A DNA stretch of 64,000 nucleotides from Candidatus Saccharimonadota bacterium (GTDB taxonomy: Bacteria; Patescibacteriota; Saccharimonadia; Saccharimonadales; JACOTW01), in contig JACOTW010000004.1 in NCBI GenBank assembly GCA_016178135.1, positions 2,681-66,680 on the forward strand, read 5' to 3'. How positions within the stretch are numbered: the first letter of the stretch is position 1; the number at the start of each line of letters is the position of its first letter. Under the pieces are notes generated by a model. It was not told the DNA's origin, ran no database searches, and worked only from the letters and a program-made list of their open reading frames with translations. Made by a program: the position numbers and the translations under genes. Positions 196 to 53,962 of the stretch are shown here, one piece after another.

Positions 196-362
196 TATAG
201 CCCCCGCAAAACAAATTCGTGGGTTTTTGAAGCAATGATCTTTGAGTCAAAAACTGACTTTTCCGAGAGAGACATATCCTTAGATACGTTGAACGAAGAA
301 AGGCGGTTTTGGGCCAAAGAGGGTGATTCGAAAAGTCGGGAATTTGTTTTGCGGGGGCTATA
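196..362 (+). mobile_element. Family A palindromic TIR element (MITE-like), copy A1, subfamily 1, 167 bp
   Basis: It is bounded by TATAGCCCCCGCAAAACAAATTC and GAATTTGTTTTGCGGGGGCTATA, a perfect 23-bp inverted repeat. Seven other copies lie in the window. There is no transposase ORF. Confidence 0.85.
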
Positions 363-9134: not shown

Positions 9135-10292
9135 ATGCCAAAAAGGAAATTAAAAGTTTTTGTGGATGCTGAAGTCTTAATCGCTCCACATTTTAGTGGC
9201 ATCGGCCATTACACACTAGAGCTACTAAGAGCTCTGGACGGATTGATAGAAGATCGGTCAGATATAGAAATATCGCTTGGCGTTTATTATAAAAGGGTTG
9301 CCCAGATTAGAGCTTATGGATTCAGGAATTTCAAAATACGCAGATCGCCTTTTCCCTTAAGACTTTCAAACGCAATGAAAATTCGTGGCTGGCAACCATT
9401 CTATGATCTTTTTTTTGGTAAAAAAATCTATTTGTTTCCCAATTACACGTCTTGGCCATTATTATTCTCTAAATCAATTTCCATCGTATATGATCTTTCG
9501 TTTGAGTATTTTCCGCAGTACGTCGAGCCCCGCAATCAAAAATTTCTTAGTGATAATGTCAAAAAATCCGTAAAACGTTCAACAAAAATCATAACCATAT
9601 CAACAAATAGCCAAAAGGAAATCGTGAAATTCTATGGTATACCAAAAGGAAATGTTTCTATTGTATACCCAGGAGTTGACCAAAAAGAATTCTACAGACG
9701 ACCAGATAGCGAGATAAAAGACGTTATGGCACGTTATGGTATTCATGGTAAATATATTTTGTTTGTGGGTAATATCGAGCCAAGAAAGAACCTTAAAGGC
9801 TTGCTACTGGCCTATGAAAAACTAAGTGCCGACAGTCGCAAGCAATATTCACTATTACTTGTAGGTGCCAGAGGTTGGCTAGATGATGAAATCTTTGAAA
9901 TCATTGGACGCTTAAGAAAAAATGGCAACCACATCCAACAACCACTTGAATATGTCAATGACCATGACAGACCAGCAATATTTAGTGGGGCTTCGTTGTT
10001 CGTTTATCCCAGTCTTTATGAGGGTTTTGGTATTCCACCAATTGAAGCCATGGCCTGCGGAGTACCGGTAATTACCAGCAACAACTCATCCTTGCCGGAA
10101 GCCGTTGGCAAAGCGGCCACGATGGTAGATATCAAATCTATAGGTGATCTAGCCAATGCTATGAAATCCGTTTTAGGCAACCCAAAACTACAAGCAAATA
10201 TGATACAAGGCGGTTACCAGCAAGCAGATAAGTTCTCTTGGGACAATGAAGCCAAAAAATTACTGCGAATATTAGAGGATACAAACAATTGA
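9135..10292 (+). CDS. GT4 (GT-B) glycosyltransferase
   Basis: 385 aa with the EGFGIPPIEAMACGVPVITS motif (E-x7-E region) of family 4 transferases. Confidence 0.85.
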   Translation: MPKRKLKVFVDAEVLIAPHFSGIGHYTLELLRALDGLIEDRSDIEISLGVYYKRVAQIRAYGFRNFKIRRSPFPLRLSNAMKIRGWQPFYDLFFGKKIYLFPNYTSWPLLFSKSISIVYDLSFEYFPQYVEPRNQKFLSDNVKKSVKRSTKIITISTNSQKEIVKFYGIPKGNVSIVYPGVDQKEFYRRPDSEIKDVMARYGIHGKYILFVGNIEPRKNLKGLLLAYEKLSADSRKQYSLLLVGARGWLDDEIFEIIGRLRKNGNHIQQPLEYVNDHDRPAIFSGASLFVYPSLYEGFGIPPIEAMACGVPVITSNNSSLPEAVGKAATMVDIKSIGDLANAMKSVLGNPKLQANMIQGGYQQADKFSWDNEAKKLLRILEDTNN

Positions 10293-11623
10293 AAACTATT
10301 TGCTTTGACCTACGAGCCCTACAGATAGGCCATGAAAACCGCGGTATCGGAATGTATATAAAAAGCGTTCTCGAGAACATGCCAATAGATAAAAATAAAT
10401 ATATTTTCTACGCATTCGACAAAAATGATCCTATAAAAACTCTTGATATTAAATTTCAAAACACCTACGAGCTGATCCAAACACCTACAATAAAAACCGC
10501 CCTTGGTTCTCCCCGCGACATAATAGGGCTTATCAAACTTATCAATCATCGTTTTTACCCTCTTAAAAAAATAAATCCTGATGTATTTGTACAGTTTGAT
10601 TTCACACTTGGCATACCTAGGTGGAAAAAGACGAAAACAATAGTTGTTGGTTATGATTTGATACCGTTGATTATGAAGAACGAGTATCTACCCAGTGTAT
10701 CTTTTGCCCTAAAACACTCGGCACCACAACATCAAGGAATGCTGAAACATTTTGTGCGATCAATAGTTTTTAGATTGAAACATAAGTCTTTCGCTATCAA
10801 AAAGCCATCAATCATATTGCGTAAGCCCTTTATTGCCATGGTTCGCTCTATTTATTACCGCTTAAAATATCGGTTGCATTACAAAGTTTTTAAACGTGCT
10901 GACCGAATTGTCGCTATTTCTGAATCAACCGCAGAGGATTTCATCAATATCCTCGGAGTAAGCAGAAAAAAGGTGTCAAGCATTCCTCTTGCCCCAGTAT
11001 TGCCTGACGGCTCTCCGGACTTTTCCATTTCAAGGAAAATTTCTAAACCGTACGTTTTTTATATAGGTGGTACCGACAGCCGCAAAAAAATCCAAGATAT
11101 TATCTATGCTTTTAACATAGCTAAGGGACGCGGAGCGGATATCGCACTAGTACTTGCCGGAAATGAATTCAGTAAATTAGAGAGCCTACCAAACGTAGAG
11201 GGCAGGAACGCGATACTGAAAAGTCCTTACAGGCAAGATATACACCTTGTCGGATTTGTTAGCGACGCTCAAAAGATGGGTCTATATAAATCTGCCCACG
11301 CTTTCATATTCTGCACCATATACGAAGGTTTTGGCTTGCCAATAATAGAGGCTATGAGTGCCTCATGCCCAGTTATTAGCTATAATAATTCATCAATACC
11401 CGAAACTGCCGGTAACGCAGCCCTACTGGTTGACACGGGAGATTACGTAGCCATAGCCAATAAAATAATCGCCCTGGAAGATAAAAAATTAAAACAGGTA
11501 ATTATAGAAAAAGGCATAAAACAAGCAAATAAGTTTAACTGGAAGATTTATGTGACAGAATTTAAAAAAGTTCTGACAGGTATAGCCCCCGCAAAACAAA
11601 TTCGGGGGTTTTGGAGCCGATGA
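10289..11623 (+). CDS. GT4 glycosyltransferase whose last ~13 codons and stop lie inside element A2
   Basis: 444 aa with YEGFGLPIIEAMSASCPVISY. The C-terminus ...VLTG-IAPAKQIRGFWSR* is read from the A2 TIR. Confidence 0.8.
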   Translation: MKTICFDLRALQIGHENRGIGMYIKSVLENMPIDKNKYIFYAFDKNDPIKTLDIKFQNTYELIQTPTIKTALGSPRDIIGLIKLINHRFYPLKKINPDVFVQFDFTLGIPRWKKTKTIVVGYDLIPLIMKNEYLPSVSFALKHSAPQHQGMLKHFVRSIVFRLKHKSFAIKKPSIILRKPFIAMVRSIYYRLKYRLHYKVFKRADRIVAISESTAEDFINILGVSRKKVSSIPLAPVLPDGSPDFSISRKISKPYVFYIGGTDSRKKIQDIIYAFNIAKGRGADIALVLAGNEFSKLESLPNVEGRNAILKSPYRQDIHLVGFVSDAQKMGLYKSAHAFIFCTIYEGFGLPIIEAMSASCPVISYNNSSIPETAGNAALLVDTGDYVAIANKIIALEDKKLKQVIIEKGIKQANKFNWKIYVTEFKKVLTGIAPAKQIRGFWSR

Positions 11624-11747
11624 TCTTCGAGTCAAAAACTGGCTCTTCTGAGGGAAGCATATCATTAGATAAGGTGAGTGAGGAAAGACAGTTTTTGGCC
11701 GGAGAGGGCGGTTCAAAAAGCCGTTAATTTGTTTTGCGGGGGCTATA
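11581..11747 (+). mobile_element. Family A element, copy A2, subfamily 2, 167 bp
   Basis: It has the same TIRs as A1. The core is GGAGCCGATGATCTTCGAGTCAAAAACTGGCTCTTCTGAGGGAAGC... Confidence 0.85.
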
Positions 11748-16950: not shown

Positions 16951-18051
16951 ATGCCGAAAATTATGGTAACAGGAGTGAATGGATTTGTGGGCAAGCATCT
17001 GGTCCGTGAACTAGTGGCTCGAAAATGTACGGTTACTGGAGTTGGTCGTGATAAAAACGTCGATAAATCTTTGGAGAATATCGTATCGAACTATTATTCG
17101 TGTGATTTAACTGATAAATCCGCAGTAGCAATACTCCCGCTTGATTCAATTGATGCTGTTATAAACCTGGCTGGCCTGGCAAGAGTCGGAGAGTCTTTTG
17201 ATAAGCCAGATTTTTACAAACATGTTAATGTTGGCGTTTTATCTGTTCTATCGGAACGTCTATTGGCTTTATCTTCTGGGGCTCGTGTGATTGCCGTTAG
17301 CACAGGGGCGGTTTATGATCCTAGGCAACCTATGCCACTTAACGAAGGATCTATTCTACTGGACTTACGCAAAATCGCCCGTTCCCAGGGCAAATCAGCT
17401 CGAGTTGAGAGTGGTTTGACTGAAGGAGAGGTAGCCTTAGCTACATCGAAAGAAGACAGACCGCTACCGCTTGAGATTAGTTGGTCTGGGGATGGGGGAG
17501 CTTTGCGTAAGTCCAGTCTAATAACTTCTGGTTCTCCTTACGCACTTAGTAAGATTGATATGGAAATAGTAGTTTCGGATTTGAGAAGTAGAGGTTTGGA
17601 TTGTATTATAGCGCGACCATTTAATCATATAGGGCCAGGCCAAGACATCGGCTTCTTAGTCCCCGATTTATACACCAAAATCCTAAGGGCTAATCAGTCT
17701 GGTGGCACAATAGCCGTAGGTGACTTAACGACCAGACGGGATTATACCGACGTCCGAGATGTGGTGCGAGCATATGCGGACCTCGCAGTCGCCCCCACAT
17801 TGCAACATGCTGTTTATAACGTTTGTAGTGGCCGTAGCGTGTCAGGGGGAAAGATCCTGGAATTACTACTAAAAGAAACTGGTCAAGTGGGGAAAATTAA
17901 TGTTACCACCGATTCTGCTTTTATAAGGCCGAATGATCCCGAGGACTTATTTGGCAGCAATGAGCGCCTGCATAATGAAACTGGCTGGCAACCAACAATC
18001 CCGCTTGAGCAGACAATTACAGATTTTGTGAACTCTAAAAGCACTTATTAA
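16951..18051 (+). CDS. NAD-dependent sugar-nucleotide reductase/epimerase (extended SDR; Rmd-like by context), carrying in-frame element B2
   Basis: 366 aa with the Rossmann motif VTGVNGFVGKHL, a VSTGAVY segment and the catalytic PYALSK (YxxxK). About 53 codons between them come from the family B element. Confidence 0.7.
   Translation: MPKIMVTGVNGFVGKHLVRELVARKCTVTGVGRDKNVDKSLENIVSNYYSCDLTDKSAVAILPLDSIDAVINLAGLARVGESFDKPDFYKHVNVGVLSVLSERLLALSSGARVIAVSTGAVYDPRQPMPLNEGSILLDLRKIARSQGKSARVESGLTEGEVALATSKEDRPLPLEISWSGDGGALRKSSLITSGSPYALSKIDMEIVVSDLRSRGLDCIIARPFNHIGPGQDIGFLVPDLYTKILRANQSGGTIAVGDLTTRRDYTDVRDVVRAYADLAVAPTLQHAVYNVCSGRSVSGGKILELLLKETGQVGKINVTTDSAFIRPNDPEDLFGSNERLHNETGWQPTIPLEQTITDFVNSKSTY
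17357..17517 (+). mobile_element. Family B element, copy B2, full length, inside a CDS and in frame
   Basis: It runs TACTGGACTTACGCAAAATCGCCCGTTCCCAGGG...GTAGCCTTAGCTAC...GGGGAGCTTTGCGTAAGTCCAGT. The host ORF stays open through it. Confidence 0.85.
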
Positions 18052-19099: not shown

Positions 19100-20197
19100 A
19101 TGAAAAAAATCGTTATTGACGCAAGAGAATTCGGAGGCACAGGCGGTGGGACATATCTCAAACATCTTCTTCAAAAACTTCAAGAAATAGACAATAATCA
19201 CAAATATGTGGTGCTACTAAAGCCCAAAGATATGGATAGCTGGAAGCCTGTTAATCGCAAGTTCGAAAAGCTACAATGTAATTACAAAGAGTTTACATTT
19301 GCCGAGCAAATTGGATTATTCAAACAACTTCGTAGTCTAAAAGCTGACCTCGTACACTTCCCTATGACCCAACAACCTGTGCTTTACCGCGGAAAAGTCG
19401 TAACAACAATAAACGATCTTACTACTGTGCGATTCCGTAATCCTAGCAAAAACTGGCTTATTTTTACTATAAAACGTTGGGTATATAAATGGGTTGCCTT
19501 GGTAGCTGCGCGAAAATCTAAAGCATTGTTAACATATACTGAATTCGTCAAAAACGATGTTGCCAAATTTGCCCACGTTAATAGTAGAAAAATTACCGTT
19601 ACTTATTTGGCGGCAGATAAAATTACCGAAGAACCTAGACCCGTAGAAAACTTGGAAAATGTGCAGTTTATTATGTACGTTGGGCGTCCCCAGCCACATA
19701 AAAACCTGGACCGTTTAGTAGAAGCTTTTACGTTGATAAAGCAAACCCACCCCGAGTTGAAATTAGTGCTGGCCGGCAAAAAAGATGTCTTGTACCGTCG
19801 CATAGCCACAAAGATTAAATACCGGAAAATTCCAGATATTATTTTTACTGGGTTTGTCGACGAAGGCCAATTACGTTGGCTGTACGAACATACAGCTTGC
19901 TATGTTTTTCCATCCTTGAGCGAGGGCTTTGGGCTGCCAGGCCTAGAGGCCATGAATCATGGAGCACCAGTAGTATCCAGCAACGCCACTTGTCTGCCAG
20001 AGGTCTATGGCGATGCTGCTGAATATTTCGACCCACTAAATGTTGAAGAAATGGCACAAGCTATAGCCAAAGTTATCGACAAACCAAAACGCCGCGATGA
20101 ATTAGTCGCCTTGGGCAAGAAACAAGCTAATAAATACTCCTGGCAGCGCATGGCCGAACAAACCCTGGCCGTCTACAAAGAAGCCTTAGGCGATTAA
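19100..20197 (+). CDS. GT4 glycosyltransferase
   Basis: 365 aa with SEGFGLPGLEAMNHGAPVVSS. Confidence 0.85.
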   Translation: MKKIVIDAREFGGTGGGTYLKHLLQKLQEIDNNHKYVVLLKPKDMDSWKPVNRKFEKLQCNYKEFTFAEQIGLFKQLRSLKADLVHFPMTQQPVLYRGKVVTTINDLTTVRFRNPSKNWLIFTIKRWVYKWVALVAARKSKALLTYTEFVKNDVAKFAHVNSRKITVTYLAADKITEEPRPVENLENVQFIMYVGRPQPHKNLDRLVEAFTLIKQTHPELKLVLAGKKDVLYRRIATKIKYRKIPDIIFTGFVDEGQLRWLYEHTACYVFPSLSEGFGLPGLEAMNHGAPVVSSNATCLPEVYGDAAEYFDPLNVEEMAQAIAKVIDKPKRRDELVALGKKQANKYSWQRMAEQTLAVYKEALGD

Positions 20198-20763
20198 GAA
20201 CTATGGTCTTTGAGCCATTTGGTAATCTCGTCGATGCCCAGGTGCTCAACAGCGACCTGAACTGCAAAGTCTTCGAGTTCACTTGGTTTGGCGGTAAGTT
20301 TTTTATGATTTCTCACTAAGAAAATTCCAACTATCGTAACGGCAGCCCGTTTATTGCCGTCAACGAAGGGATGATCACCAATTATATTTCGCAGATATAC
20401 CGCTGCTTTTTCTAAAACTGTGGGGTACTGTTCTGAGCCAAAAACTGTTTGCTGTGGGGCAGCCACAACAGACAATAACCGACCCTCGTCTCTAACGCCA
20501 TGAGAGCCCCCAAAATCTTCGATTATCCGGAAGTGCAACTTCAATATCTCTTCAGGGCTTAGATATAGCCCCCGCAAAACAAATTCCCGACTTTTCGAAT
20601 CACCCTCTTTGGCCCAAAACCGCCTTTCCTCGTTCAACGTATCTAAGGATATGTCTCTCTGGGAAAAGTCAGTTTTTGGCTCAAAGATCATTGCTTCAAA
20701 AACCTCAAAGATCATTGCTTCAAAAACCCACGAATTTGTTTTGCGGGGACTATAAGTTATCAT
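20194..20763 (-). CDS. doc: Doc/Fic-family toxin with a 63-codon in-frame family A insertion after codon 3
   Basis: It has the Doc-type Fic motif HPFVDGNKRAA. The N-terminus reads MIT-[YSPRKTNS...EFVLRGL]-YLSPEEILKLH. Its ATG overlaps the antitoxin stop (ATGA). Confidence 0.8.
   Translation of the reverse strand: MITYSPRKTNSWVFEAMIFEVFEAMIFEPKTDFSQRDISLDTLNEERRFWAKEGDSKSREFVLRGLYLSPEEILKLHFRIIEDFGGSHGVRDEGRLLSVVAAPQQTVFGSEQYPTVLEKAAVYLRNIIGDHPFVDGNKRAAVTIVGIFLVRNHKKLTAKPSELEDFAVQVAVEHLGIDEITKWLKDHSS
20564..20754 (-). mobile_element. Family A element, copy A3, subfamily 1, 191 bp (24-bp internal tandem duplication)
   Basis: Both TIRs are present. TCAAAGATCATTGCTTCAAAAACC is duplicated in tandem. 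The copy lies inside doc. Confidence 0.85.
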
Positions 20764-20975
20764 CTATCAGCAAGGTTTTTTAGAGTTTGGCCATATTCTT
20801 TGACAAACTTATTGTAATCTTCCATGAGCTTGTCATGGTCATCCTTTTTTAGGGACTCAACCATAACCTTGACTTCATCCCCATAAGAAATACCTTGGCG
20901 TTTCATCTCCTTTGCAGGGATAGTAACGCCACCGCTTGAACCTATTTTGATGACTTTTTGGATACTTTCAATCAT
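20760..20975 (-). CDS. AbrB/SpoVT-type antitoxin (Phd-role partner of Doc)
   Basis: 71 aa. KIGSSGGVTIPAKEMKRQGISYGDEV is a swapped-hairpin AbrB/MazE-like motif. It is translationally coupled to doc. Confidence 0.7.
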   Translation of the reverse strand: MIESIQKVIKIGSSGGVTIPAKEMKRQGISYGDEVKVMVESLKKDDHDKLMEDYNKFVKEYGQTLKNLADR

Positions 20976-21005
20976 ACAAACATTATAACAATATTATAAT
21001 AAAAG

Positions 21006-23831
21006 TCAATTGTCGGTCTTTTTCGCTATTGCCAAAATTGCCGCAACTACCCCGCCCCCGACGACAAGAACAATTAGTAAATATGGTGGCTGCTGGCTTG
21101 CTTCTGAATTGCTCGGGATAGGTTGCGTAGCGGCTACTGAGTCACTGGCCAAAGCAGGGCTTGCCGTTCGGCTAAGTACTTGGCTGCCACTTACCACATT
21201 TTCAGCTAGAACATTCGGTGTTGTGGCTAAGCCCGGGGTTTGGATTGCCGTAGTAGAGGCGGCTTGTACGACTTCCGCCGTGTTAGTATTTAAAATCTCG
21301 TTACCTGCTACAGTTTCGCCAGGGCTCAAACCATTAAATTTCACAAACTCCAGATCCTCTTGGTTCACTACCTCGATGGGTAGCTGCTCAACCTCTAAAG
21401 TTTGTGGTTTAGAACTAGCGTCCTCTGTCACTGCCAGGGCAAGTAATGCGTCACCCGAAAAATAACTGTTTGGGATTGTAATGCTGCCGTTGCTCCCAGG
21501 GACGCTCACTATCGGCAGGCCGGTTTCTGGGTCTTTGATAACCACAAATATTTCGCCGTCGGGGTCCCAAGTAACTTCGATCTCTCCGTTTGCGGTCACC
21601 TTGGCTTGCAGATTAGTGGGTAGCTCGGGCGAAGTGTAGTCAGGTAGCGGGCCGTCATACTGCTCGACAGTCAGTGGCAATGTTGTTCTTGCCTGTTCTT
21701 CTTCGCCAGCGTAGGCTGCGACTTGCACAAAGTTATCTGTGGTCGGTACGGTAAAAGTATGTTCTATATTTGGCGACTCGGTTTCTTTGTCCCAGGTACC
21801 ATCACCATTGAAATCCCATTTATACTCATCGGCCGTAATCGGACTCTCGGAAACATCAAGCGTGATCGGCACATTGGTACGAGCTTTAATCTGGTCGCTT
21901 ACCCCTAGTACTTGGTTTGGTCCCAAAATCTCCAGCGCGTCTTTGTACGCCAAAGCTATTTGTTTTGGCTGATGATTTAGTACCCGCCAAAGCATGTCGG
22001 TGTAATCCGCCTTACCAAACACGTCATATTTCAGGTAAAGCCCGCCAGTGGCCTTGGCAAAATATTCCAAGCGCTTCTCGGCCGCCGGTTTATCGGTAAC
22101 CGTAGCCGTTAGCCCATGCGGTATAACTACCGTGACGTCCGTACGTTGTGTTTGAGCGACTTTTATTGCATCGTCAAAGGTTCGGGTGATGTTGTGGACA
22201 AAGCCCGGGCTGGCCATATTTAGGCTGCAGGTTTCTTCGGTGATAGCTAGCCAGACTTTGTCACAAAGCTCTGGGTGCTTATAACTCAGGGCACTTACCT
22301 GCTCTGGGTTGGTATAACAGTTGGGTGGGTTCGGCAGATTAAATTGAGTCCAGATGCTGGCGTTGCAGATATTATAAGTGAAGCTTTCTTTGAACGGACG
22401 ATCGGTAATCAGCACGATGTGTTTTATGGCTTTTGGATCCCAGTAGGTACCCAGACTGGTTTTTTCTACCATTATCCCGTGAGGATCAGGGACATCAGCT
22501 CCGCCTCCGCTAGTTGCGTCGCCCCAGGCTAACTTATTTATCAAATTTGATGTGAGGGGCGTGGAGTAAATTGGACTGTTTACTGGTTGATATGGCGCGG
22601 GCTGTTGCCCGATAACGTATCTGGGTAACATCGTGCCATACTGGTCAAGTTCATTATAGTAGGCAAATCCGTATCGAACGCCGTTAAAGAATCCTTGCAT
22701 GGGACCGGTTACGCTATCTGTTTGGGTGCGTAATGTGCCCATAACATCGTTGACGTTATAGCTCACGTCTATGAGAAACATAACGTCAATCGGTTTGGTA
22801 TTTGGAACGTACGGTACTGTCTGCGTTGGCCCGGCTCCTTTATCTATGCCGCCCCGCGACTTATTAAGCGCATATAGTGTAGGCGACATCAGCTGAACTA
22901 TTTCACTCGCCGCCTGGGGCACACCAAAACTCGGGTAGCGCGAATGACCTGCACCAAGTGACTTTCCCTCTGAAGCCCAATCAACGAGCCCACCGGCAAA
23001 TGTTTTTGTCCCGGTACAAATAAAGTCGTCATCAAAACACCAACTCTGCACTCTTTTTTTCATATCATCCGGAATATAGGGTTTGCGCGGATCAAGCATC
23101 CCGGTTTTATATAGAGGTGCATGCCCTCGTCTCCATGGTTGCTCCTGATAATTTCCTTGTGAATCTTTGTATGAAGCATTGTATTTAGGGTCGCCGAAAA
23201 ACGCCACTCCCGCGATGCTCTTACGTTCATCTTCAGTCAGCTTGAACAAACCATTGCCCACAACCTCAGCTCCTTGGGAATAGCCGCCCAGTACAATCTG
23301 CTGGTTCGGACAACGTGCAGCTTCATCTCGCACAAATCCAGAAACCTCGCTTACTCCACCATATACACTGTCCCGATATTCGCCTGGAATAACGCTCCAT
23401 TCAGAGTTCAGCGTGTTTCGGTCTATAAATTGCGGTGCTGGCGCAAAAGCATGAACTGCTTTATATCCGACTGGGCTATATTTGTTTGGAAAATCATGTA
23501 CAGATACAGCTTTGTAGGTTACGTGCGGGTAATCCTGGTCAAGAATGTTCTGAAACTTTTGAAAAAATGTTCCAGCCTCCGGTTCACTCCCTAGGAATGG
23601 CGGCTCGAAAGGCTCATCTAGATTTAGACCTGCGTTATTGGAAGAAGAACCTCTTGCAAAAATCAATAGCACATCCGAACACTCTGTTGACCAGTTATCG
23701 ACTTTTTTGGCTTGTACGCTAGCAGTTAAAATGAGCAAAAAGAGCATAAGAAAAAGAACTGATAAGGGGCGTAAAGCTCTATGAACGAGCTGCGAAATAG
23801 AGTTCTTGTTTTCTCTCATTATATGACCCAT
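21006..23831 (-). CDS. Large secreted, C-terminally anchored multidomain protein (cutinase-like hydrolase + vWA-like + PKD-like)
   Basis: 941 aa with a signal peptide. GGYSQGA is a cutinase-type nucleophile elbow. MFLIDVSYNV resembles a vWA MIDAS motif. YKWDFNGDGTWD is PKD-like. A C-terminal TM segment (LLIVLVVGGGVVAAILAIA) follows. Confidence 0.6.
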   Translation of the reverse strand: MGHIMRENKNSISQLVHRALRPLSVLFLMLFLLILTASVQAKKVDNWSTECSDVLLIFARGSSSNNAGLNLDEPFEPPFLGSEPEAGTFFQKFQNILDQDYPHVTYKAVSVHDFPNKYSPVGYKAVHAFAPAPQFIDRNTLNSEWSVIPGEYRDSVYGGVSEVSGFVRDEAARCPNQQIVLGGYSQGAEVVGNGLFKLTEDERKSIAGVAFFGDPKYNASYKDSQGNYQEQPWRRGHAPLYKTGMLDPRKPYIPDDMKKRVQSWCFDDDFICTGTKTFAGGLVDWASEGKSLGAGHSRYPSFGVPQAASEIVQLMSPTLYALNKSRGGIDKGAGPTQTVPYVPNTKPIDVMFLIDVSYNVNDVMGTLRTQTDSVTGPMQGFFNGVRYGFAYYNELDQYGTMLPRYVIGQQPAPYQPVNSPIYSTPLTSNLINKLAWGDATSGGGADVPDPHGIMVEKTSLGTYWDPKAIKHIVLITDRPFKESFTYNICNASIWTQFNLPNPPNCYTNPEQVSALSYKHPELCDKVWLAITEETCSLNMASPGFVHNITRTFDDAIKVAQTQRTDVTVVIPHGLTATVTDKPAAEKRLEYFAKATGGLYLKYDVFGKADYTDMLWRVLNHQPKQIALAYKDALEILGPNQVLGVSDQIKARTNVPITLDVSESPITADEYKWDFNGDGTWDKETESPNIEHTFTVPTTDNFVQVAAYAGEEEQARTTLPLTVEQYDGPLPDYTSPELPTNLQAKVTANGEIEVTWDPDGEIFVVIKDPETGLPIVSVPGSNGSITIPNSYFSGDALLALAVTEDASSKPQTLEVEQLPIEVVNQEDLEFVKFNGLSPGETVAGNEILNTNTAEVVQAASTTAIQTPGLATTPNVLAENVVSGSQVLSRTASPALASDSVAATQPIPSNSEASQQPPYLLIVLVVGGGVVAAILAIAKKTDN

Positions 23832-28390: not shown

Positions 28391-28579
28391 TATAGCCCCC
28401 GCAAAACAAATTCGTGGGTTTTTGAAGCAATGATCTTTGAGTCAAAAACTGACTTTTCCGAGAGAGACATATCCTTAGATACGTTGAACGAGGAAAGGCG
28501 GTTTTGGGCCAAAGAGGGTGATTCGAAAAGCCAAAGAGGGTGATTCGAAAAGTCGGGAATTTGTTTTGCGGGGGCTGTA
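28391..28579 (+). mobile_element. Family A element, copy A4, subfamily 1, 189 bp (22-bp internal tandem duplication)
   Basis: CCAAAGAGGGTGATTCGAAAAG is duplicated. The right TIR ends CTGTA and runs directly into a family B half element. Confidence 0.85.
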
Positions 28580-28663
28580 GCTAAGGCTACCTCTTCTTCA
28601 GTCAAACCACTCCCAACTCGAGCTGATTTGCCCTGGGAACGGGCGATTTTGGGTAAGTCCAGT
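28577..28663 (-). repeat. Family B half element (from the central palindrome to one TIR)
   Basis: GTAGCTAAGGCTACCTCTTCTTCAGTCAAACCACTCCCAACTCGAGCTGATTTGCCCTGGGAACGGGCGATTTTGGGTAAGTCCAGT is the reverse complement of the left half of B2. Confidence 0.8.
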
Positions 28664-28762
28664 TTATTCTCAATAGGTGCATTGACTAATGTAATGTAAA
28701 ACCCCACCCCGTAATAGCCCTCCATTATTATAAATACCCAGCTATAGCTTATTATATATAAT

Positions 28763-30036: not shown

Positions 30037-30992
30037 TACTTTTTCCTCCGCTTCTTTTTATAGGATGCTTTGGTTTTGTTGGGGTTTGTTGGTTTTTTAA
30101 TAACAACTTCACCATCAATAATATTTTTCTTGGGTGGCTGATCAGCTATTGCTTCCAGTTCTGTTTCGTCCTGCTTGAGCACACTAGATTGTTGGATGAA
30201 CGCAGTTAGGCCACTAATTAGCCAATACAAGCTAAGGGCTGAAGCAATATTGACGGTAAAGATAAAAATCATACCTGGTATAAGATATTTAGTATTCCGG
30301 CCGATAGCCGCATTAACTTCGGCCTGATCAGCCTCCTTGCCACCACCGGCATCTTTGAGTATTTGGCGTAATTTACGTCCATCTTTATTCTGTGGCATAA
30401 GTTGCTTGCTCTGATAATACTGGGCTACAGCACTGCCAATTACAATGAACATAGCCGGCCAGTATATACCACCATTCCCGAGTGCCGCTCTTTTAAGATC
30501 TATAACCCCAAATAGTGAGGCATCAAAACGGTTTATATCAACTGCCAGATCTTTCATCCAACCAAAATTATGTAACCAAGAATAAGAGAAGTCGATAATA
30601 GCTTGTGGATCATCAATAACCCGACGTAGTCCACTATAAAGCGCAATAAGAATAGGAATTTGCAAGATCAGAATACCGATTGATGAAAATGGACTAATCT
30701 GACGCTCTTTGTAAAGTTCCATGAGCATCATTGATTCTTTCTGACGATTACCCTTGGTGGCCTGTTTGATACGTTTTAACTCCGGCTGCAGTTCCCGCAT
30801 AGCCTTGGCGTGATGCAGTTGCTTCCTGATCAGTGGCCACATCAAAAGACGCACAACAATAGTGAATATAATAATAGCTAGGCCAAAATTATGTCCTGGC
30901 AGTATGGCATAGATAAAAACCAGCAGGTTGAAAATCGGTTGAATAATAAGAGTATTAAAAAAAGATGCGAACATAATTTCCCTTTCTTGCAT
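30036..30992 (-). CDS. yidC: Membrane protein insertase YidC
   Basis: 318 aa in the rnpA-yidC-jag order, multi-TM with a basic C-terminal tail KKKRRKK. The start may be the internal M at 30974. Confidence 0.85.
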   Translation of the reverse strand: MQEREIMFASFFNTLIIQPIFNLLVFIYAILPGHNFGLAIIIFTIVVRLLMWPLIRKQLHHAKAMRELQPELKRIKQATKGNRQKESMMLMELYKERQISPFSSIGILILQIPILIALYSGLRRVIDDPQAIIDFSYSWLHNFGWMKDLAVDINRFDASLFGVIDLKRAALGNGGIYWPAMFIVIGSAVAQYYQSKQLMPQNKDGRKLRQILKDAGGGKEADQAEVNAAIGRNTKYLIPGMIFIFTVNIASALSLYWLISGLTAFIQQSSVLKQDETELEAIADQPPKKNIIDGEVVIKKPTNPNKTKASYKKKRRKK

Positions 30993-31515
30993 CTATAATA
31001 TCACGCCTGTTGGGGAAAAAGCGTGAAAGCCCTATATATAGCCCCCGCAAAACAAATTCACGGCTTTTTGAACCGCCCTCTTCGGTCAAAAGCTGTTTTT
31101 CCTCACTCACCTTATCTAAGGATATGCTTCCCTCGGAAAAGCCAGTTTTTGACTCGAAGATCATCGGCTCCAAAACCACGTTGGCCTGCTTTAGCTGTGC
31201 CCTAACCAATCTATCAAGATCATCGAACGAAAGTTCAGCGACTTGCTCATGAAAAACGGTTATTACCAAATCGTATGGTTCAATTATTTTAGACTCGTAT
31301 TGACGAACGGCCTCATATAAACGACGACGAATACGATTACGCGTAACTGCCGATTTATTAACTTTTTTACTAACCACTATTGCTAAACGATATGTTTGCC
31401 GTCGATCATTGTGGGTATATTTTAGTGATGTCAGTGGACCACGTACAGTTTGCCCATGCCTGTAAACGTACTTTAGCGATCCGTAGCCATGAAAACGATG
31501 TTTGCGGCTAATCAT
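30955..31515 (-). CDS. rnpA: RNase P protein component, C-terminally extended by read-through into truncated element A5
   Basis: The first ~115 aa (RLAIVVSKKVNKSAVTRNRIRRRLYEA) look like a normal RnpA. A further 71 aa (LEPMIFESKTGFSEGS...EFVLRGLY...) are read from the family A element and the yidC leader. Confidence 0.8.
   Translation of the reverse strand: MISRKHRFHGYGSLKYVYRHGQTVRGPLTSLKYTHNDRRQTYRLAIVVSKKVNKSAVTRNRIRRRLYEAVRQYESKIIEPYDLVITVFHEQVAELSFDDLDRLVRAQLKQANVVLEPMIFESKTGFSEGSISLDKVSEEKQLLTEEGGSKSREFVLRGLYIGLSRFFPNRRDIIDARKGNYVRIFF
31037..31177 (-). mobile_element. Family A element, copy A5, subfamily 2, truncated (one TIR missing)
   Basis: One TIR is intact at 31037. The copy ends at ...GGCTCCAAAACC, about 25 bp short of the other TIR, where it is fused to rnpA coding sequence. 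Confidence 0.8.
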
Positions 31516-31804: not shown

Positions 31805-31968
31805 TACTGGACCTGTCGCAAAGCTCCCCCCATCCCGAGACCAATTCATCTCGGCTGGTAGCGGTCTGTCTTCTCTCGATGTAGCTAAGGCTACCTCCCC
31901 TTCAGTCAAACCACTCCCAACTCGAGCTGATTTAGCCTGGGAACGGGCGATTTTGCGATAGGTCCAGT
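31805..31968 (-). mobile_element. Family B element, copy B3 (TIR variant CTGGACCTGTCGCAAA), in the rpmH-dnaA spacer
   Basis: It runs TACTGGACCTGTCGCAAAGCTCCCCCCATCCCGAGACC...GTAGCTAAGGCTAC...GGGCGATTTTGCGATAGGTCCAGT. Confidence 0.8.
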
Positions 31969-32047
31969 TTATGTAAGTCGAGTTTACTCTTATTTGTTGG
32001 GCTTAATGAGTGAAATTAACAATATTTACCCCTCTATTATTTAGTGG

Positions 32048-43230: not shown

Positions 43231-43397
43231 TATAGCCCCCGCAAAACAAATTCGGGGGTTTTGGAGCCGATGATCTTCGAGTCAAAAACTGGCTTTTCCG
43301 AGGGAAGCATATCATTAGATAAGGTGAGTGAGGAAAGACAGCTTTTGACCGGAGAGGGCGGTTCAAAAAGCCGTGAATTTGTTTTGCGGGGGCTATA
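43231..43397 (+). mobile_element. Family A element, copy A6, subfamily 2, 167 bp, inside the T4SS operon
   Basis: Both TIRs are intact. It lies between 43477-44388 and virB4. Confidence 0.85.
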
Positions 43398-48673: not shown

Positions 48674-48829
48674 TATAGTCCCCGCAAAACAAATTCGTGG
48701 GTTTTTGAAGCAATGATCTTTGAGCCAAAAACTGACTTTTCCGAGAGAGACATATCCTTAGATACGTTGAACGAGGAAAGGCGGTTTTGGGCCAAAGAGG
48801 GTGATTCGAAAATCAAAAACGAGGCTATA
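48674..48829 (+). mobile_element. Family A element, copy A7, subfamily 1, with a degenerate right TIR
   Basis: The left TIR is TATAGTCCCCGCAAAACAAATTC. The right end is reduced to AATCAAAAACGAGGCTATA. It ends 10 bp before the first pilin ATG, in a divergent promoter region. Confidence 0.75.
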
Positions 48830-50558: not shown

Positions 50559-51113
50559 ATGAATCAAATTATCAAACGAATAACTGGACTGGGTGGCTTA
50601 CGCAAAACTTCCCCATCTCCAGATCAACCAATCTTGGCTGGTAGTGGCCTGTCTTCTGGCGATGTAGCTATGGCTTCTTCGGTCAAGCCACTCCCAATTC
50701 GAGCTGATTTAGCCTGGGAACGGGCGATTTTGCGTAAGTCCAGTCTACTGATAAGTTGTCTGGTGATTCTTGGAGGATTTTTCGCTTCCGCGCCACCCGC
50801 TTTTGCCCTATTTGAAAACGCCGCCAAAGAGGCCTGTAGTGGCGTGACCCTTAATGAAAACACGACTGATTGCCCGGACAGTTCAGGCAAAGTTAATAAT
50901 TTGCTTACGACAGTTATAAATATATTTTCCGTGGCTATAGGTTTTATCGCAGTAATTATGATTATTATTTCTGGACTTCGTTATGTTACTTCTGCTGGCG
51001 ACAGTAATGCCACATCCGGAGCCAAGAACACCCTGTTATATGCCGTTGTAGGCTTGGTAATAGTGGTGTTGGCGCAGGTTATTGTTCGATTTGTGCTTAG
51101 TAAGACTGGTTGA
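50559..51113 (+). CDS. VirB2/TrbC-like pilin paralog 5, with family B element B4 in frame inside the signal peptide
   Basis: The ATG at 50559 gives MNQIIKRI-[54 element-derived aa]-LISCLVILGGFFASAPPAFA. The module is MIIISGLRYVTSAGDSNATSGAKNTLLYAVVGLVI. Confidence 0.6.
   Translation: MNQIIKRITGLGGLRKTSPSPDQPILAGSGLSSGDVAMASSVKPLPIRADLAWERAILRKSSLLISCLVILGGFFASAPPAFALFENAAKEACSGVTLNENTTDCPDSSGKVNNLLTTVINIFSVAIGFIAVIMIIISGLRYVTSAGDSNATSGAKNTLLYAVVGLVIVVLAQVIVRFVLSKTG
50583..50744 (-). mobile_element. Family B element, copy B4, inside a CDS and in frame
   Basis: It runs ACTGGAC[TGGGTGGC]TTACGCAAAACTTCCCCATCTCCAGATC...GTAGCTATGGCTTC...GGGCGATTTTGCGTAAGTCCAGT. One TIR carries an 8-bp insertion. 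Confidence 0.8.
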
Positions 51114-51603: not shown

Positions 51604-51859
51604 CGGATTTACGTAAAAAGCTCCCTTGTCCCCCAGACTGAATCGGCTCGAGCTATACTGGACCTGTCGCAAAGCTTCCCCATCCCCAGACCAAATAATC
51701 TCGGCTGGTAGCAGTCTGTCTTCTCTCGATGTAGCTATGGCTACCTCTCCTTCAGACAAAACAGTTTTCGCTCGAGATAATTCACTCTGGGAACGGACGA
51801 GTTTTCGTAAGTCCAGTCGAGCTGATTTAGCCTGGGAACGGGCGATTATCGCGTAAGTT
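51604..51859 (-). repeat. Cluster of family B sequences: partial + full copy B5 (51654-51817) + partial
   Basis: The full copy runs TATACTGGACCTGTCGCAAAGCTTCCCCATCCCCAGACC...GTAGCTATGGCTAC...GAGTTTTCGTAAGTCCAGT. It is flanked by GGATTTACGTAAAAAGCTCCCTTGTCCCCCAGAC... and CGAGCTGATTTAGCCTGGGAACGGGCGATTATCGCGTAAGTT. Confidence 0.75.
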
Positions 51860-52448: not shown

Positions 52449-52576
52449 TATAGCCCCTGCAAAACAAATTCGGGGGTTTTGTCAGGCTCTTAGGATATGC
52501 CTCAGTCGTTTAGGCAGCTTTTGGATTACTTGGATCATCAGACTGAAAAATGCCATTTTGTTTTGGGATGGCTATA
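52449..52576. mobile_element. Family A-related element, copy A8, divergent short form (128 bp)
   Basis: Its ends are TATAGCCCCTGCAAAACAAATTCGGGGGTTTTG and TTTTGTTTTGGGATGGCTATA. It lies in the hsp20/comF divergent promoter region. A family C TIR-like stub (GCGCAAAACTCGTGTT) follows at 52578-52593. Confidence 0.65.
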
Positions 52577-53309: not shown

Positions 53310-53400
53310 TGGCGGAGGAGGCGAGATTCGAACTCGCGATACCGCATGACGATATACTGCTTTTCGAGAGCAGCGCCTTCAACCACTCGGCCACTCCTCC
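53310..53400 (-). tRNA. tRNA-Ser (anticodon CGA)
   Basis: Hand-folded. Acceptor stem GGAGGAG/CTCCTCC, anticodon stem CTGCT/AGCAG with loop CTCGAAA, a long variable arm, T-arm GCGAG-TTCGAAT-CTCGC, and an encoded CCA. Confidence 0.9.
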
Positions 53401-53416
53401 ATGCCCATTAATTCTA

Positions 53417-53533
53417 TCAGCTACAAACAGTTTTTCTTCACTCTATGTAGCTATGGCTACCTCTCCTTCAGTCAAACCACTATCAGCTCGAGATAATTCA
53501 CTTTGGGAACGGACGATTTTGTGTAAATCGAGT
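53417..53533 (-). repeat. Family B partial copy B6 (one terminus missing next to the tRNA)
   Basis: It reads ...CTCTATGTAGCTATGGCTACCTCTCCTTCAGTCAAACCACTATCAGCTCGAGATAATTCACTTTGGGAACGGACGATTTTGTGTAAATCGAGT. It abuts the GNAT stop codon. Confidence 0.7.
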
Positions 53534-53962
53534 TTATCTCTCAAACTTCAGATAACCTTCTGGTGTATAGCCAGTCTTTAAAAAGTTGTTGTTTATTAGG
53601 GTTCGTTGAGCGGCAGAATTGTCAGACGTTGTTGAGGCAGACAGTTTTCCTAAGTTGTTTACAAAGGGGTCCTTGAGAATATTGGCAACCACGTAATCAC
53701 CAATACCTTGCCGTCTTTCAGATGGCTTAACGGCAAAATCCAGATAGCCATCATTTTGTTCGTCGACATCAATAGTTACAACTGCCACGATATTATCGCC
53801 ATCAAGGGCTACCCATCCCTGAAACCTGCTTCCCAAATAACCAAAATCAAAAGAAGACAATTGGGGCACCTTAAAAAGAGTACTAGCCGCATCAGTATTA
53901 AACCATTCGCTAATTTGACTCAAATGGCTAGGTTCAAGCTTTTTAATGGTAATTGTGTCCAT
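53534..53962 (-). CDS. GNAT-family N-acetyltransferase
   Basis: The ATG at 53962 (MDTITIKKLEP...) is preferred. RRQGIGDYVVANIL is a motif-A-like segment. The track start (GTG at 54034) lies inside element C2. Confidence 0.65.
   Translation of the reverse strand: MDTITIKKLEPSHLSQISEWFNTDAASTLFKVPQLSSFDFGYLGSRFQGWVALDGDNIVAVVTIDVDEQNDGYLDFAVKPSERRQGIGDYVVANILKDPFVNNLGKLSASTTSDNSAAQRTLINNNFLKTGYTPEGYLKFER

Follow-up and report, generated by a model that had tools for sequence, protein, structure and literature searches.

How did a toxin gene come to carry 63 codons of a mobile element, three codons behind its start, without losing its reading frame, and what becomes of the toxin? This question is raised by doc, the toxin gene of an antitoxin-doc pair, on a 64,000-nt stretch of DNA (hereafter the window) from the Candidatus Saccharimonadota metagenome-assembled genome (MAG) GCA_016178135.1 (contig JACOTW010000004.1, positions 2,681-66,680). 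A first-pass annotation made from the letters had reported a repeated element, family A, sitting in frame behind the third codon of doc, and the coordinates, the length of 189 bp or 63 codons and the flanking TA dinucleotides that it gave all match our own. We argue below that the doc copy is one of several gene-end insertions in a compact genome, and not a dedicated toxin-antitoxin regulator. From the analysis as a whole, we judge it somewhat probable that the insertion attenuates the Doc toxin.

The doc open reading frame (ORF; 20194-20763, minus strand) encodes 189 amino acids (aa). Its product reads MIT-YSPRKTNSWVFEAMIFEVFEAMIFEPKTDFSQRDISLDTLNEERRFWAKEGDSKSREFVLRGL-YLSPEE..., and after the element it resumes with YLSPEEILKLH, the usual Doc N-terminus. 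The element itself (family A copy c3; 20564-20754, minus strand) measures 191 nt with both flanking TAs, is bounded by TATAG...CTATA, lies at the TA of doc codon 4 (TAT) and supplies doc residues 4-66 in frame, for a net insertion of 189 nt; it is defined by the family alignment, by shared terminal inverted repeats (TIRs) and by the empty site. Upstream of it stand the doc ATG and codons 2 and 3 (ATG ATA ACT; 20755-20763, minus strand), identical to those of the uninterrupted ortholog at locus L015. The mRNA-5' TIR, TATAGTCCCCGCAAAACAAATTC (20732-20754, minus strand), pairs in the predicted RNA with the mRNA-3' TIR at 20564-20586 (minus strand), which reads GAATTTGTTTTGCGGGGGCTATA on the doc strand and is placed by family alignment and RNA fold. 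Within the element, a 24-nt unit, CTCAAAGATCATTGCTTCAAAAAC, is tandemly duplicated (20680-20727, minus strand; units at 20680-20703 and 20704-20727), which adds 8 codons and gives VFEAMIFE twice. The first-pass annotation had already described this internal duplication, which is absent from the L017 allele discussed below and from every other family A copy.

More than 1,000 Doc homologs, most of them of Saccharibacteria-like origin, came out of our search of protein sequences; the best 119 were aligned, and ortholog counts refer to these. It had been considered that all Doc orthologs might share an N-terminal extension unrelated to the repeat, whereas only two to five residues precede the conserved Tyr in 119 of 119. 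The closest orthologs, P0002 and P0003, are 126 aa long (189 minus 63) and 86-87% identical, and start MITYLNLEE and MINYLSLEE. The nearest of them, P0002 at L015 (86% identity), provides the uninterrupted allele for which a comparison of orthologs had been proposed, with ATGATAACTTATCTAAACCTTGAA at the place of insertion. Its empty site, ATGATAACTTA followed directly by TCTAA (also written ACTTATCTAA), holds one TA, and the filled site reads ACTTA[TAG...CTA]TATCTAA; compared over a longer stretch of DNA, P0002 has GATAGATGATAACTTATCTAAACC and the window GATAGATGATAACTTA[TAGTCC...GGCTA]TATCTAAGCC. Excision of the element and one TA from the window yields ATGATAACTTATCTAAGCCCTGAA and restores a typical Doc N-terminus, just as the annotation had predicted. 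On this comparison, a miniature inverted-repeat transposable element (MITE) transposed into the TA of doc codon 4 and duplicated that dinucleotide.

Family A has eight copies in the window (196-362, 11581-11747, 20564-20754, 28391-28579, 31037-31177, 43231-43397, 48674-48812 and 52449-52576), and a 37-mer from the doc copy recurs where no recurrence is expected by chance. A canonical copy measures 167 nt including both TAs, or a net 165 nt (55 codons), with TIRs of 23 nt (TATAGCCCCCGCAAAACAAATTC) around an interior that forms an imperfect palindrome. Identities are 79-100%, and further copies occur at L004, L017, L019 and L020; that at L004, in another Saccharibacteria MAG, is 167 nt long and 97.6% identical. 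Seven of the eight window copies, like the full-length insertion sequences described next, are flanked by TA where their ends are intact.

The parentage of the family, which the first-pass annotation did not identify, emerged from a survey with a 20-nt TIR core, TAGYCCCCGCAAAACAAATT, across one representative genome per bacterial species. Matches were found at 14 loci, all of them in Patescibacteria (Saccharibacteria, Minisyncoccia, Kuenenbacteria, CPR3 and others). At six loci (L002, L003, L005, L008, L012 and L014), elements of ~1.1 kb are bounded by the same TIRs and TA, and the ORF at L014:6668-7696 specifies a transposase of the IS630 family (NF033545, 185.8 bits, cut-off 100; PF13358 DDE_3 plus winged-helix/helix-turn-helix domains). 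At L006, a MITE of 165 nt shares the ends of family A but differs in its interior. Elements of the IS630 type insert at TA and duplicate it, as described for RUP and IS630-Spn1 (PMC2229807). Because its TIRs are shared with the ~1.1-kb IS630-family elements, family A is, judged by its termini, a non-autonomous MITE of an IS630/Tc1-mariner-type insertion sequence (IS).

A tblastn search with the L014 transposase gave no match in the window, L004 and L017-L020 (~150 kb, a minor part of the genome). No match to a MITE-internal 25-mer was present among Joint Genome Institute (JGI) metagenome contigs, and an Rfam scan of the whole window at gathering thresholds returned four tRNAs only and nothing in the element. 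We also observed that the identical 20-nt TIR core is found in IS630 elements of several Patescibacteria classes, with many of the matches at contig ends. This distribution suggests that one IS lineage may have spread horizontally across the Patescibacteria radiation. A search of a limited literature collection for MITEs in Saccharibacteria found no paper; family A itself appears to be undescribed, although the kind of element is well known.

Two more filled alleles came to light among the other members of the NCBI protein's 90% cluster. The first, L017 (GCA_040960765.1; 654-kb contig JBFOMR010000010.1, ~98% identical), has the canonical 165-nt element within a 181-aa ORF that begins at the original ATG. 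The second, L018 (GCA_016196105.1), matches the window at 100% identity across 20 kb except for indels at two sites, both of them repeat copies. Its doc (L018:10001-10687) is without window positions 20704-20797, a 94-nt deletion whose junction joins AAGTTTGTCAAA to GTTTTTGAAGC and which takes with it the final 12 codons of the antitoxin gene, the start of doc, the mRNA-5' TIR and one 24-nt unit. The resulting ORF is an in-frame fusion of 228 aa that comprises antitoxin residues 1-59, the element and Doc, and its NCBI annotation is Doc toxin. Such a fusion would be a single-chain antitoxin-toxin of natural origin or else a module in decay. Since the window, L017 and L018 share the same filled site, the insertion, by all indications, is older than the strain split and goes back to the common ancestor of these genomes, at least three close relatives within Candidatus Saccharibacteria. 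As the alleles compare, later rearrangements of the slippage type took place at the site, the duplication and the deletion each ending at a TIR inner edge. Public start calls for this gene range from 173 aa, with Met17 within the element as the start, in the window genome (NCBI P0001) to 181 aa from the original ATG in L017 and 228 aa in L018 (P0122).

Why has the frame survived? Frames +0, -0 and -1 of family A are stop-free in copies c1, c3 and c6 (three of six frames), and frame 2 opens with the TAG of the TIR. Three or more open frames occurred in 15, 18 and 35 of 20,000 shuffles when the whole element was shuffled, the TIRs were fixed or the hairpin was preserved, respectively (P 0.0008-0.0018). 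A net length of 165 nt combined with three open frames of six gives a genic insertion at TA a roughly even chance that the ORF stays open. The 24-nt slippage duplication is likewise a multiple of three. Frame retention is, on this sequence evidence, a property of the family (a net length of 3n with half of the frames open) and not of doc. Since in-frame retention is family-wide, the doc case is less of a coincidence, and less special, than the first-pass annotation implied.

Other genes have acquired family A sequence at their ends as well. Copies form the C-terminal tails of rnpA, of a family 4 (GT4) glycosyltransferase and of a VanY carboxypeptidase. The glycosyltransferase (10289-11623, plus strand; element 11581-11747) takes its last 14 codons from the element and VanY its last 55, while a cytidylyltransferase reads through a copy near its end (121 + 55 + 8 aa; L019:10001-10939 and L020:10001-10561 are the sources for VanY/cytidylyltransferase). 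The annotated N-terminus of a DHH phosphoesterase is supplied by another copy. In rnpA (30955-31515, minus strand; element 31037-31177), the insertion lies just ahead of the native stop (...QANVI*). The L017 version of this gene (L017:3266-3852) has a complete element and a protein of 126 aa that ends 12 codons into it, and in the window one TIR has lost 26 nt, which changes the frame, so that the ORF runs on through the element to 186 aa. Within the ~150 kb sampled, genic family A copies are all at gene ends (one 5' and four 3') and none is inside a fold, with doc as the sole 5' case. A protein search with the three open-frame peptides, both subfamilies concatenated, retrieved three proteins at E <= 0.001 and missed Doc itself, so this count of hosts is too low. 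In-frame fusions between MITEs and host genes are documented for Rickettsia palindromic elements (RPEs), ERIC, YPAL and the 107-bp Correia subtype (PMC2229807, PMC10969869).

The window also contains a second family, B, with TIRs CTGGACTTACGCAAA...TTTGCGTAAGTCCAG, flanking TCTA and a net length of 162 nt (54 codons). One copy (17358-17517) interrupts, without a frame shift, the central part of an NAD-dependent epimerase/dehydratase ORF (16951-18051, plus strand), 8 residues ahead of the catalytic YxxxK (SPYALSK). The L017 gene is without this copy and encodes 312 aa versus 366 aa, with an empty site that joins GGATCTATTCTA to ATAACTTCT. This insertion is polymorphic, truly internal and RPE-like, and is arguably more striking than the doc case. 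Other family B copies are at 387-548, 28586-28666, 31828-31970, 50601-50747, 51668-51820 and 53394-53536. Family A copy c4 (28391-28579), which abuts a family B copy, has a 22-nt internal tandem duplication of its own that is not a multiple of three, and L018 is without 114 nt (28531-28644) that span the c4/family B junction. One TIR has been lost from c5, c7 and the L018 doc copy. The c4 duplication, the 114-nt loss and the copies that lack a TIR suggest that hairpins may provoke slippage and deletion at these elements.

The module that was struck is otherwise unremarkable, a Doc toxin paired with an antitoxin of the AbrB type. Its Doc core of the Fic fold (residues 67-189 plus stop; 20194-20563, minus strand) includes HPFVDGNKR, found intact as had been claimed, and scores 67.7 bits with PF02661 (cut-off 24) and 68.5 bits with TIGR01550 DOC_P1 (cut-off 38.65). 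The partner gene (20760-20975, minus strand) encodes a 71-aa antitoxin of the AbrB/MazE/SpoVT type, also its name at NCBI, with two profile scores that are below their cut-offs: 22.5 bits for PF04014, just below, and 29.7 bits for TIGR02609 doc_partner. The antitoxin stop overlaps the doc start, TGA and ATG together forming ATGA, and this overlap is retained in the sequence, in agreement with the first-pass annotation. The same gene pair is present in L015, L016 and L017. A putative sigma-70-type promoter (20982-21009, minus strand) consists of TTGACT, a 16-nt spacer and TG-TATAAT, with 11 of 12 consensus matches plus the TG extension. Its predicted -10 box ends 6 nt upstream of the antitoxin ATG, where there is no Shine-Dalgarno sequence, and because of this short distance the antitoxin-doc operon mRNA is probably leaderless. 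From the promoter to doc, a terminator scan found no terminator-like site except a weak one on the other strand.

What the insertion does to expression can be approached through predicted folds. The RNA of the doc element has a minimum free energy of -87.2 kcal/mol (z = -7.8), and its 23-bp basal TIR stem begins 9 nt after the AUG (+10). In this fold, the A of the AUG lies in a short 4-bp helix, and its U and G are in the 8-nt internal loop that separates this helix from the TIR stem. The corresponding values are -87.5 kcal/mol for the canonical allele, -56.1 for L018, where the TIR stem is lost, and -21.9 for the empty site, where a native hairpin of 7 bp around the AUG is all that forms. The element hairpin was also considered as an intrinsic terminator and rejected, there being no run of U after the stem and no terminator there in the scan.

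We infer from these models that the main effect of the insertion would be exerted at the RNA level. The two 23-nt TIRs would pair into a hairpin of -87 kcal/mol with its base 9 nt past the doc AUG and the start codon in an internal loop, and this structure would hinder coupled re-initiation at doc. RNase III, which cuts Correia TIR stems within mRNAs (PMC10969869), could by analogy cut this TIR stem and detach the body of doc from its start codon while leaving the antitoxin cistron intact. The expected outcome would be normal antitoxin with little or no toxin. The loss of toxin would cost nothing with antitoxin present, so the insertion would be harmless and would have persisted for that reason. 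An approximate E. coli Rnc query found no RNase III gene by tblastn in the ~150 kb, a minor part of the genome.

Three considerations favour attenuation. A stable stem so near the start should lower re-initiation, and it resembles an RNase III substrate. In addition, the otherwise identical L018 genome lacks an intact antitoxin C-terminus. In the P1 system, helices of Phd complete the Doc fold (PMC2686095), and the C-terminal part of Phd is the one that neutralises the toxin. A population carrying the L018 fusion allele should, to judge from its sequence, not survive a fully active Doc. Finally, the residue after the NKR motif (doc residue 140; 20344-20346) is Ala, compared with Thr in 104 of 119 orthologs and Ser in 12, with Ala in only three. 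Because this Ala is common to the window and L017, the change would have arisen on the branch that carries the insertion.

Several observations weigh against attenuation. A ribosome ending at the overlapping UGA would already open the first base pairs of the stem, and coupled re-initiation may still work. Moreover, Doc stays in frame in each of the three alleles, whether with 165 nt added, with 24 nt more or with 71 nt fewer than the canonical form, and the last two changes (+24 and -71) would both be in frame by chance about once in nine. The window and L017 doc cores differ by three synonymous and three non-synonymous substitutions, and the ratio of non-synonymous to synonymous rates (dN/dS) is 0.30, compared with 0.13-0.23 to more distant orthologs. 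The retained frame and this ratio both hint at continued selection for a translated Doc, although neither is significant, the ratio being based on six substitutions (binomial P about 0.14). It should also be noted that the 24-nt duplication and the L018 deletion are known only from short-read MAG assemblies, although the junctions of these rearrangements resemble each other over no more than an imperfect 14 nt, which speaks against an artefact of k-mer assembly.

The retained frame and the dN/dS value are also the first arguments for the strongest competing explanation, which we regard as possible but rather doubtful: a tolerated, RPE-like insertion, with Doc translated from the coupled AUG, carrying a floppy tail of 63 residues and leaving the toxin-antitoxin module essentially unchanged. 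The insertion site is at the extreme N-terminus, outside the fold, and family A is read into presumably essential genes such as rnpA. Rickettsia proteins that contain RPEs keep their activity (PMC2229807). The intact HPFVDGNKR motif is joined here by a confident predicted core, for AlphaFold2, run with a 120-sequence alignment, gave predicted local distance difference test (pLDDT) values of about 90-97 for residues 100-189. The best Foldseek match to this core was P1 Doc (3K33_A; target-normalised TM-score 0.85, root-mean-square deviation 2.3 A over 122 columns). Values of 41-63 were obtained for residues 1-66, which include two tentative helices. The structural comparison with the Fic fold that had been proposed succeeded for the core and gave no confident result for the inserted segment. 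If made, the product is, as modelled, a normal Doc core with a 63-residue N-terminal appendage whose structure is not confidently predicted. Against simple tolerance stand the very stable hairpin predicted at the start codon, the L018 allele without its antitoxin C-terminus and the small number of substitutions behind the dN/dS value. Furthermore, Phd supplies the missing Fic helices at the N-terminal side of Doc (PMC2686095), where the appendage could disturb antitoxin binding. Between tolerance and neutralisation, both named by the first-pass annotation, the structural evidence, namely the predicted hairpin and the shortened antitoxin of the sister allele, leans towards attenuation.

A more elaborate possibility, which we consider unlikely, is that the insertion has created a self-restrained toxin switch. 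The hairpin would uncouple toxin synthesis, or the element peptide would fill the antitoxin groove; families A (165 nt) and B (162 nt) would have been shaped to be 'translation-proof', with lengths of 3n and several stop-free frames that let them colonise coding sequence, and the L018 fusion would be a single-chain end point. We examined the element peptide for the Fic inhibitory-helix motif [ST]xxxE[GN] and rejected the candidates, SWVFEA and SKSREF, which fit only by half and for which AlphaFold gave no confident docking.

Alternatively, translation might begin inside the element at Met17 or Met25, so that coupling is lost and a shorter extended Doc is made. The NCBI pipeline did call the window gene from Met17, and the duplicated unit holds an in-frame ATG, but these ATGs have no Shine-Dalgarno-like sequence ahead of them and sit within the predicted hairpin, whereas the L017 gene call uses the original ATG and the original ATGA overlap is intact. 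We consider initiation at either codon quite improbable. Downstream of the element, a start codon preceded by a Shine-Dalgarno sequence was also sought and rejected, the only candidate being a GAGG 24 nt from the nearest in-frame UUG.

The first-pass annotation had further suggested that the element might be removed or bypassed at the RNA or translation level. Splicing, processing with religation or translational hopping would each restore the 126-aa Doc through a junction of ATGATAACTTA with TCTAAGCC, and the direct TA repeats and the hairpin do bring the element ends together, which makes this a formal possibility. We found no support for it, and it is very improbable: the element has no Rfam match and carries the hallmarks of a DNA transposon (IS630 TIRs and TA duplication) and not those of an intron, the hairpins of known MITEs undergo cleavage but no religation (PMC10969869), and elsewhere the element just becomes part of a protein or terminates it. 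An assembly artefact, in which the repeat was misplaced into the doc of a repetitive MAG, might be suspected from the metagenomic origin of the window, from repeat copies at contig ends in other MAGs and from differences between window and L018 that are confined to repeat copies, yet it is scarcely credible when the same junctions appear in three independent assemblies, one of them a 654-kb contig of a ~2% divergent strain, and when TA duplication and empty site are exact.

Our preferred reading is a tolerated insertion that probably attenuates the toxin. Family A itself has counterparts among several known kinds of element. RUP and other IS630-derived MITEs are, like family A, short and non-autonomous, with TIRs that match IS630 elements, insertion at TA with duplication and many copies (PMC2229807). 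RUP differs in its length of 107 nt versus 165 nt, its unrelated sequence and its host phylum, and it is described as intergenic or within IS elements (PMC2229807), whereas several protein genes have family A sequence as part of their coding ends. RPEs resemble family A in several ways: they too are palindromic and ~150 bp long, their frames are open, and in a genome that is small and compact they occur joined in frame to conserved protein genes (PMC2229807, PMC10969869). Family A, in contrast, was found at gene ends in the ~150 kb sampled, and not inside folds, and has a clear autonomous parent family (IS630) and TA duplication, which are not general for RPEs; the likeness is one of behaviour and not of sequence.

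Correia/NEMIS elements also duplicate TA, have TIRs that start with TATAG and form long TIR stems when co-transcribed, and the 107-bp Correia subtype provides ORFs fused to host ORFs (PMC10969869, PMC2229807). Their RNase III cleavage, promoters and integration host factor (IHF) sites are Neisseria features, whereas family A is unrelated in sequence and host and its stem is known from a predicted fold. Family A is not a sequence member of RUP, RPE or Correia; it has the same origin as RUP, the same coding behaviour as RPEs and the same potential RNA effect as Correia. For the module itself, P1 Phd-Doc is the closest reference, with an HxFxDGNKR motif, the 3K33_A fold that our prediction resembles and a small upstream antitoxin gene in translational overlap. 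The antitoxin there is of the Phd/YefM type and not the AbrB/MazE/SpoVT type seen here, and the transposon-encoded extension of 63 residues is absent from it, as from the 119 orthologs.

MITE copies mislead gene callers in these genomes, and for annotators they account for odd N- and C-terminal extensions and for conflicting start calls, such as the 173, 181 and 189 aa offered for the same gene. The four natural alleles of doc (empty, +165 nt, +189 nt and antitoxin-toxin fusion) amount to a natural experiment on the tolerance of Doc for an extension and for 5' mRNA structure, and on the decay of toxin-antitoxin modules. More broadly, the locus documents IS630-derived MITEs in bacteria of the Candidate Phyla Radiation, whose survival in coding sequence, in the manner of RPEs, follows from a length and reading frames that are compatible with translation.

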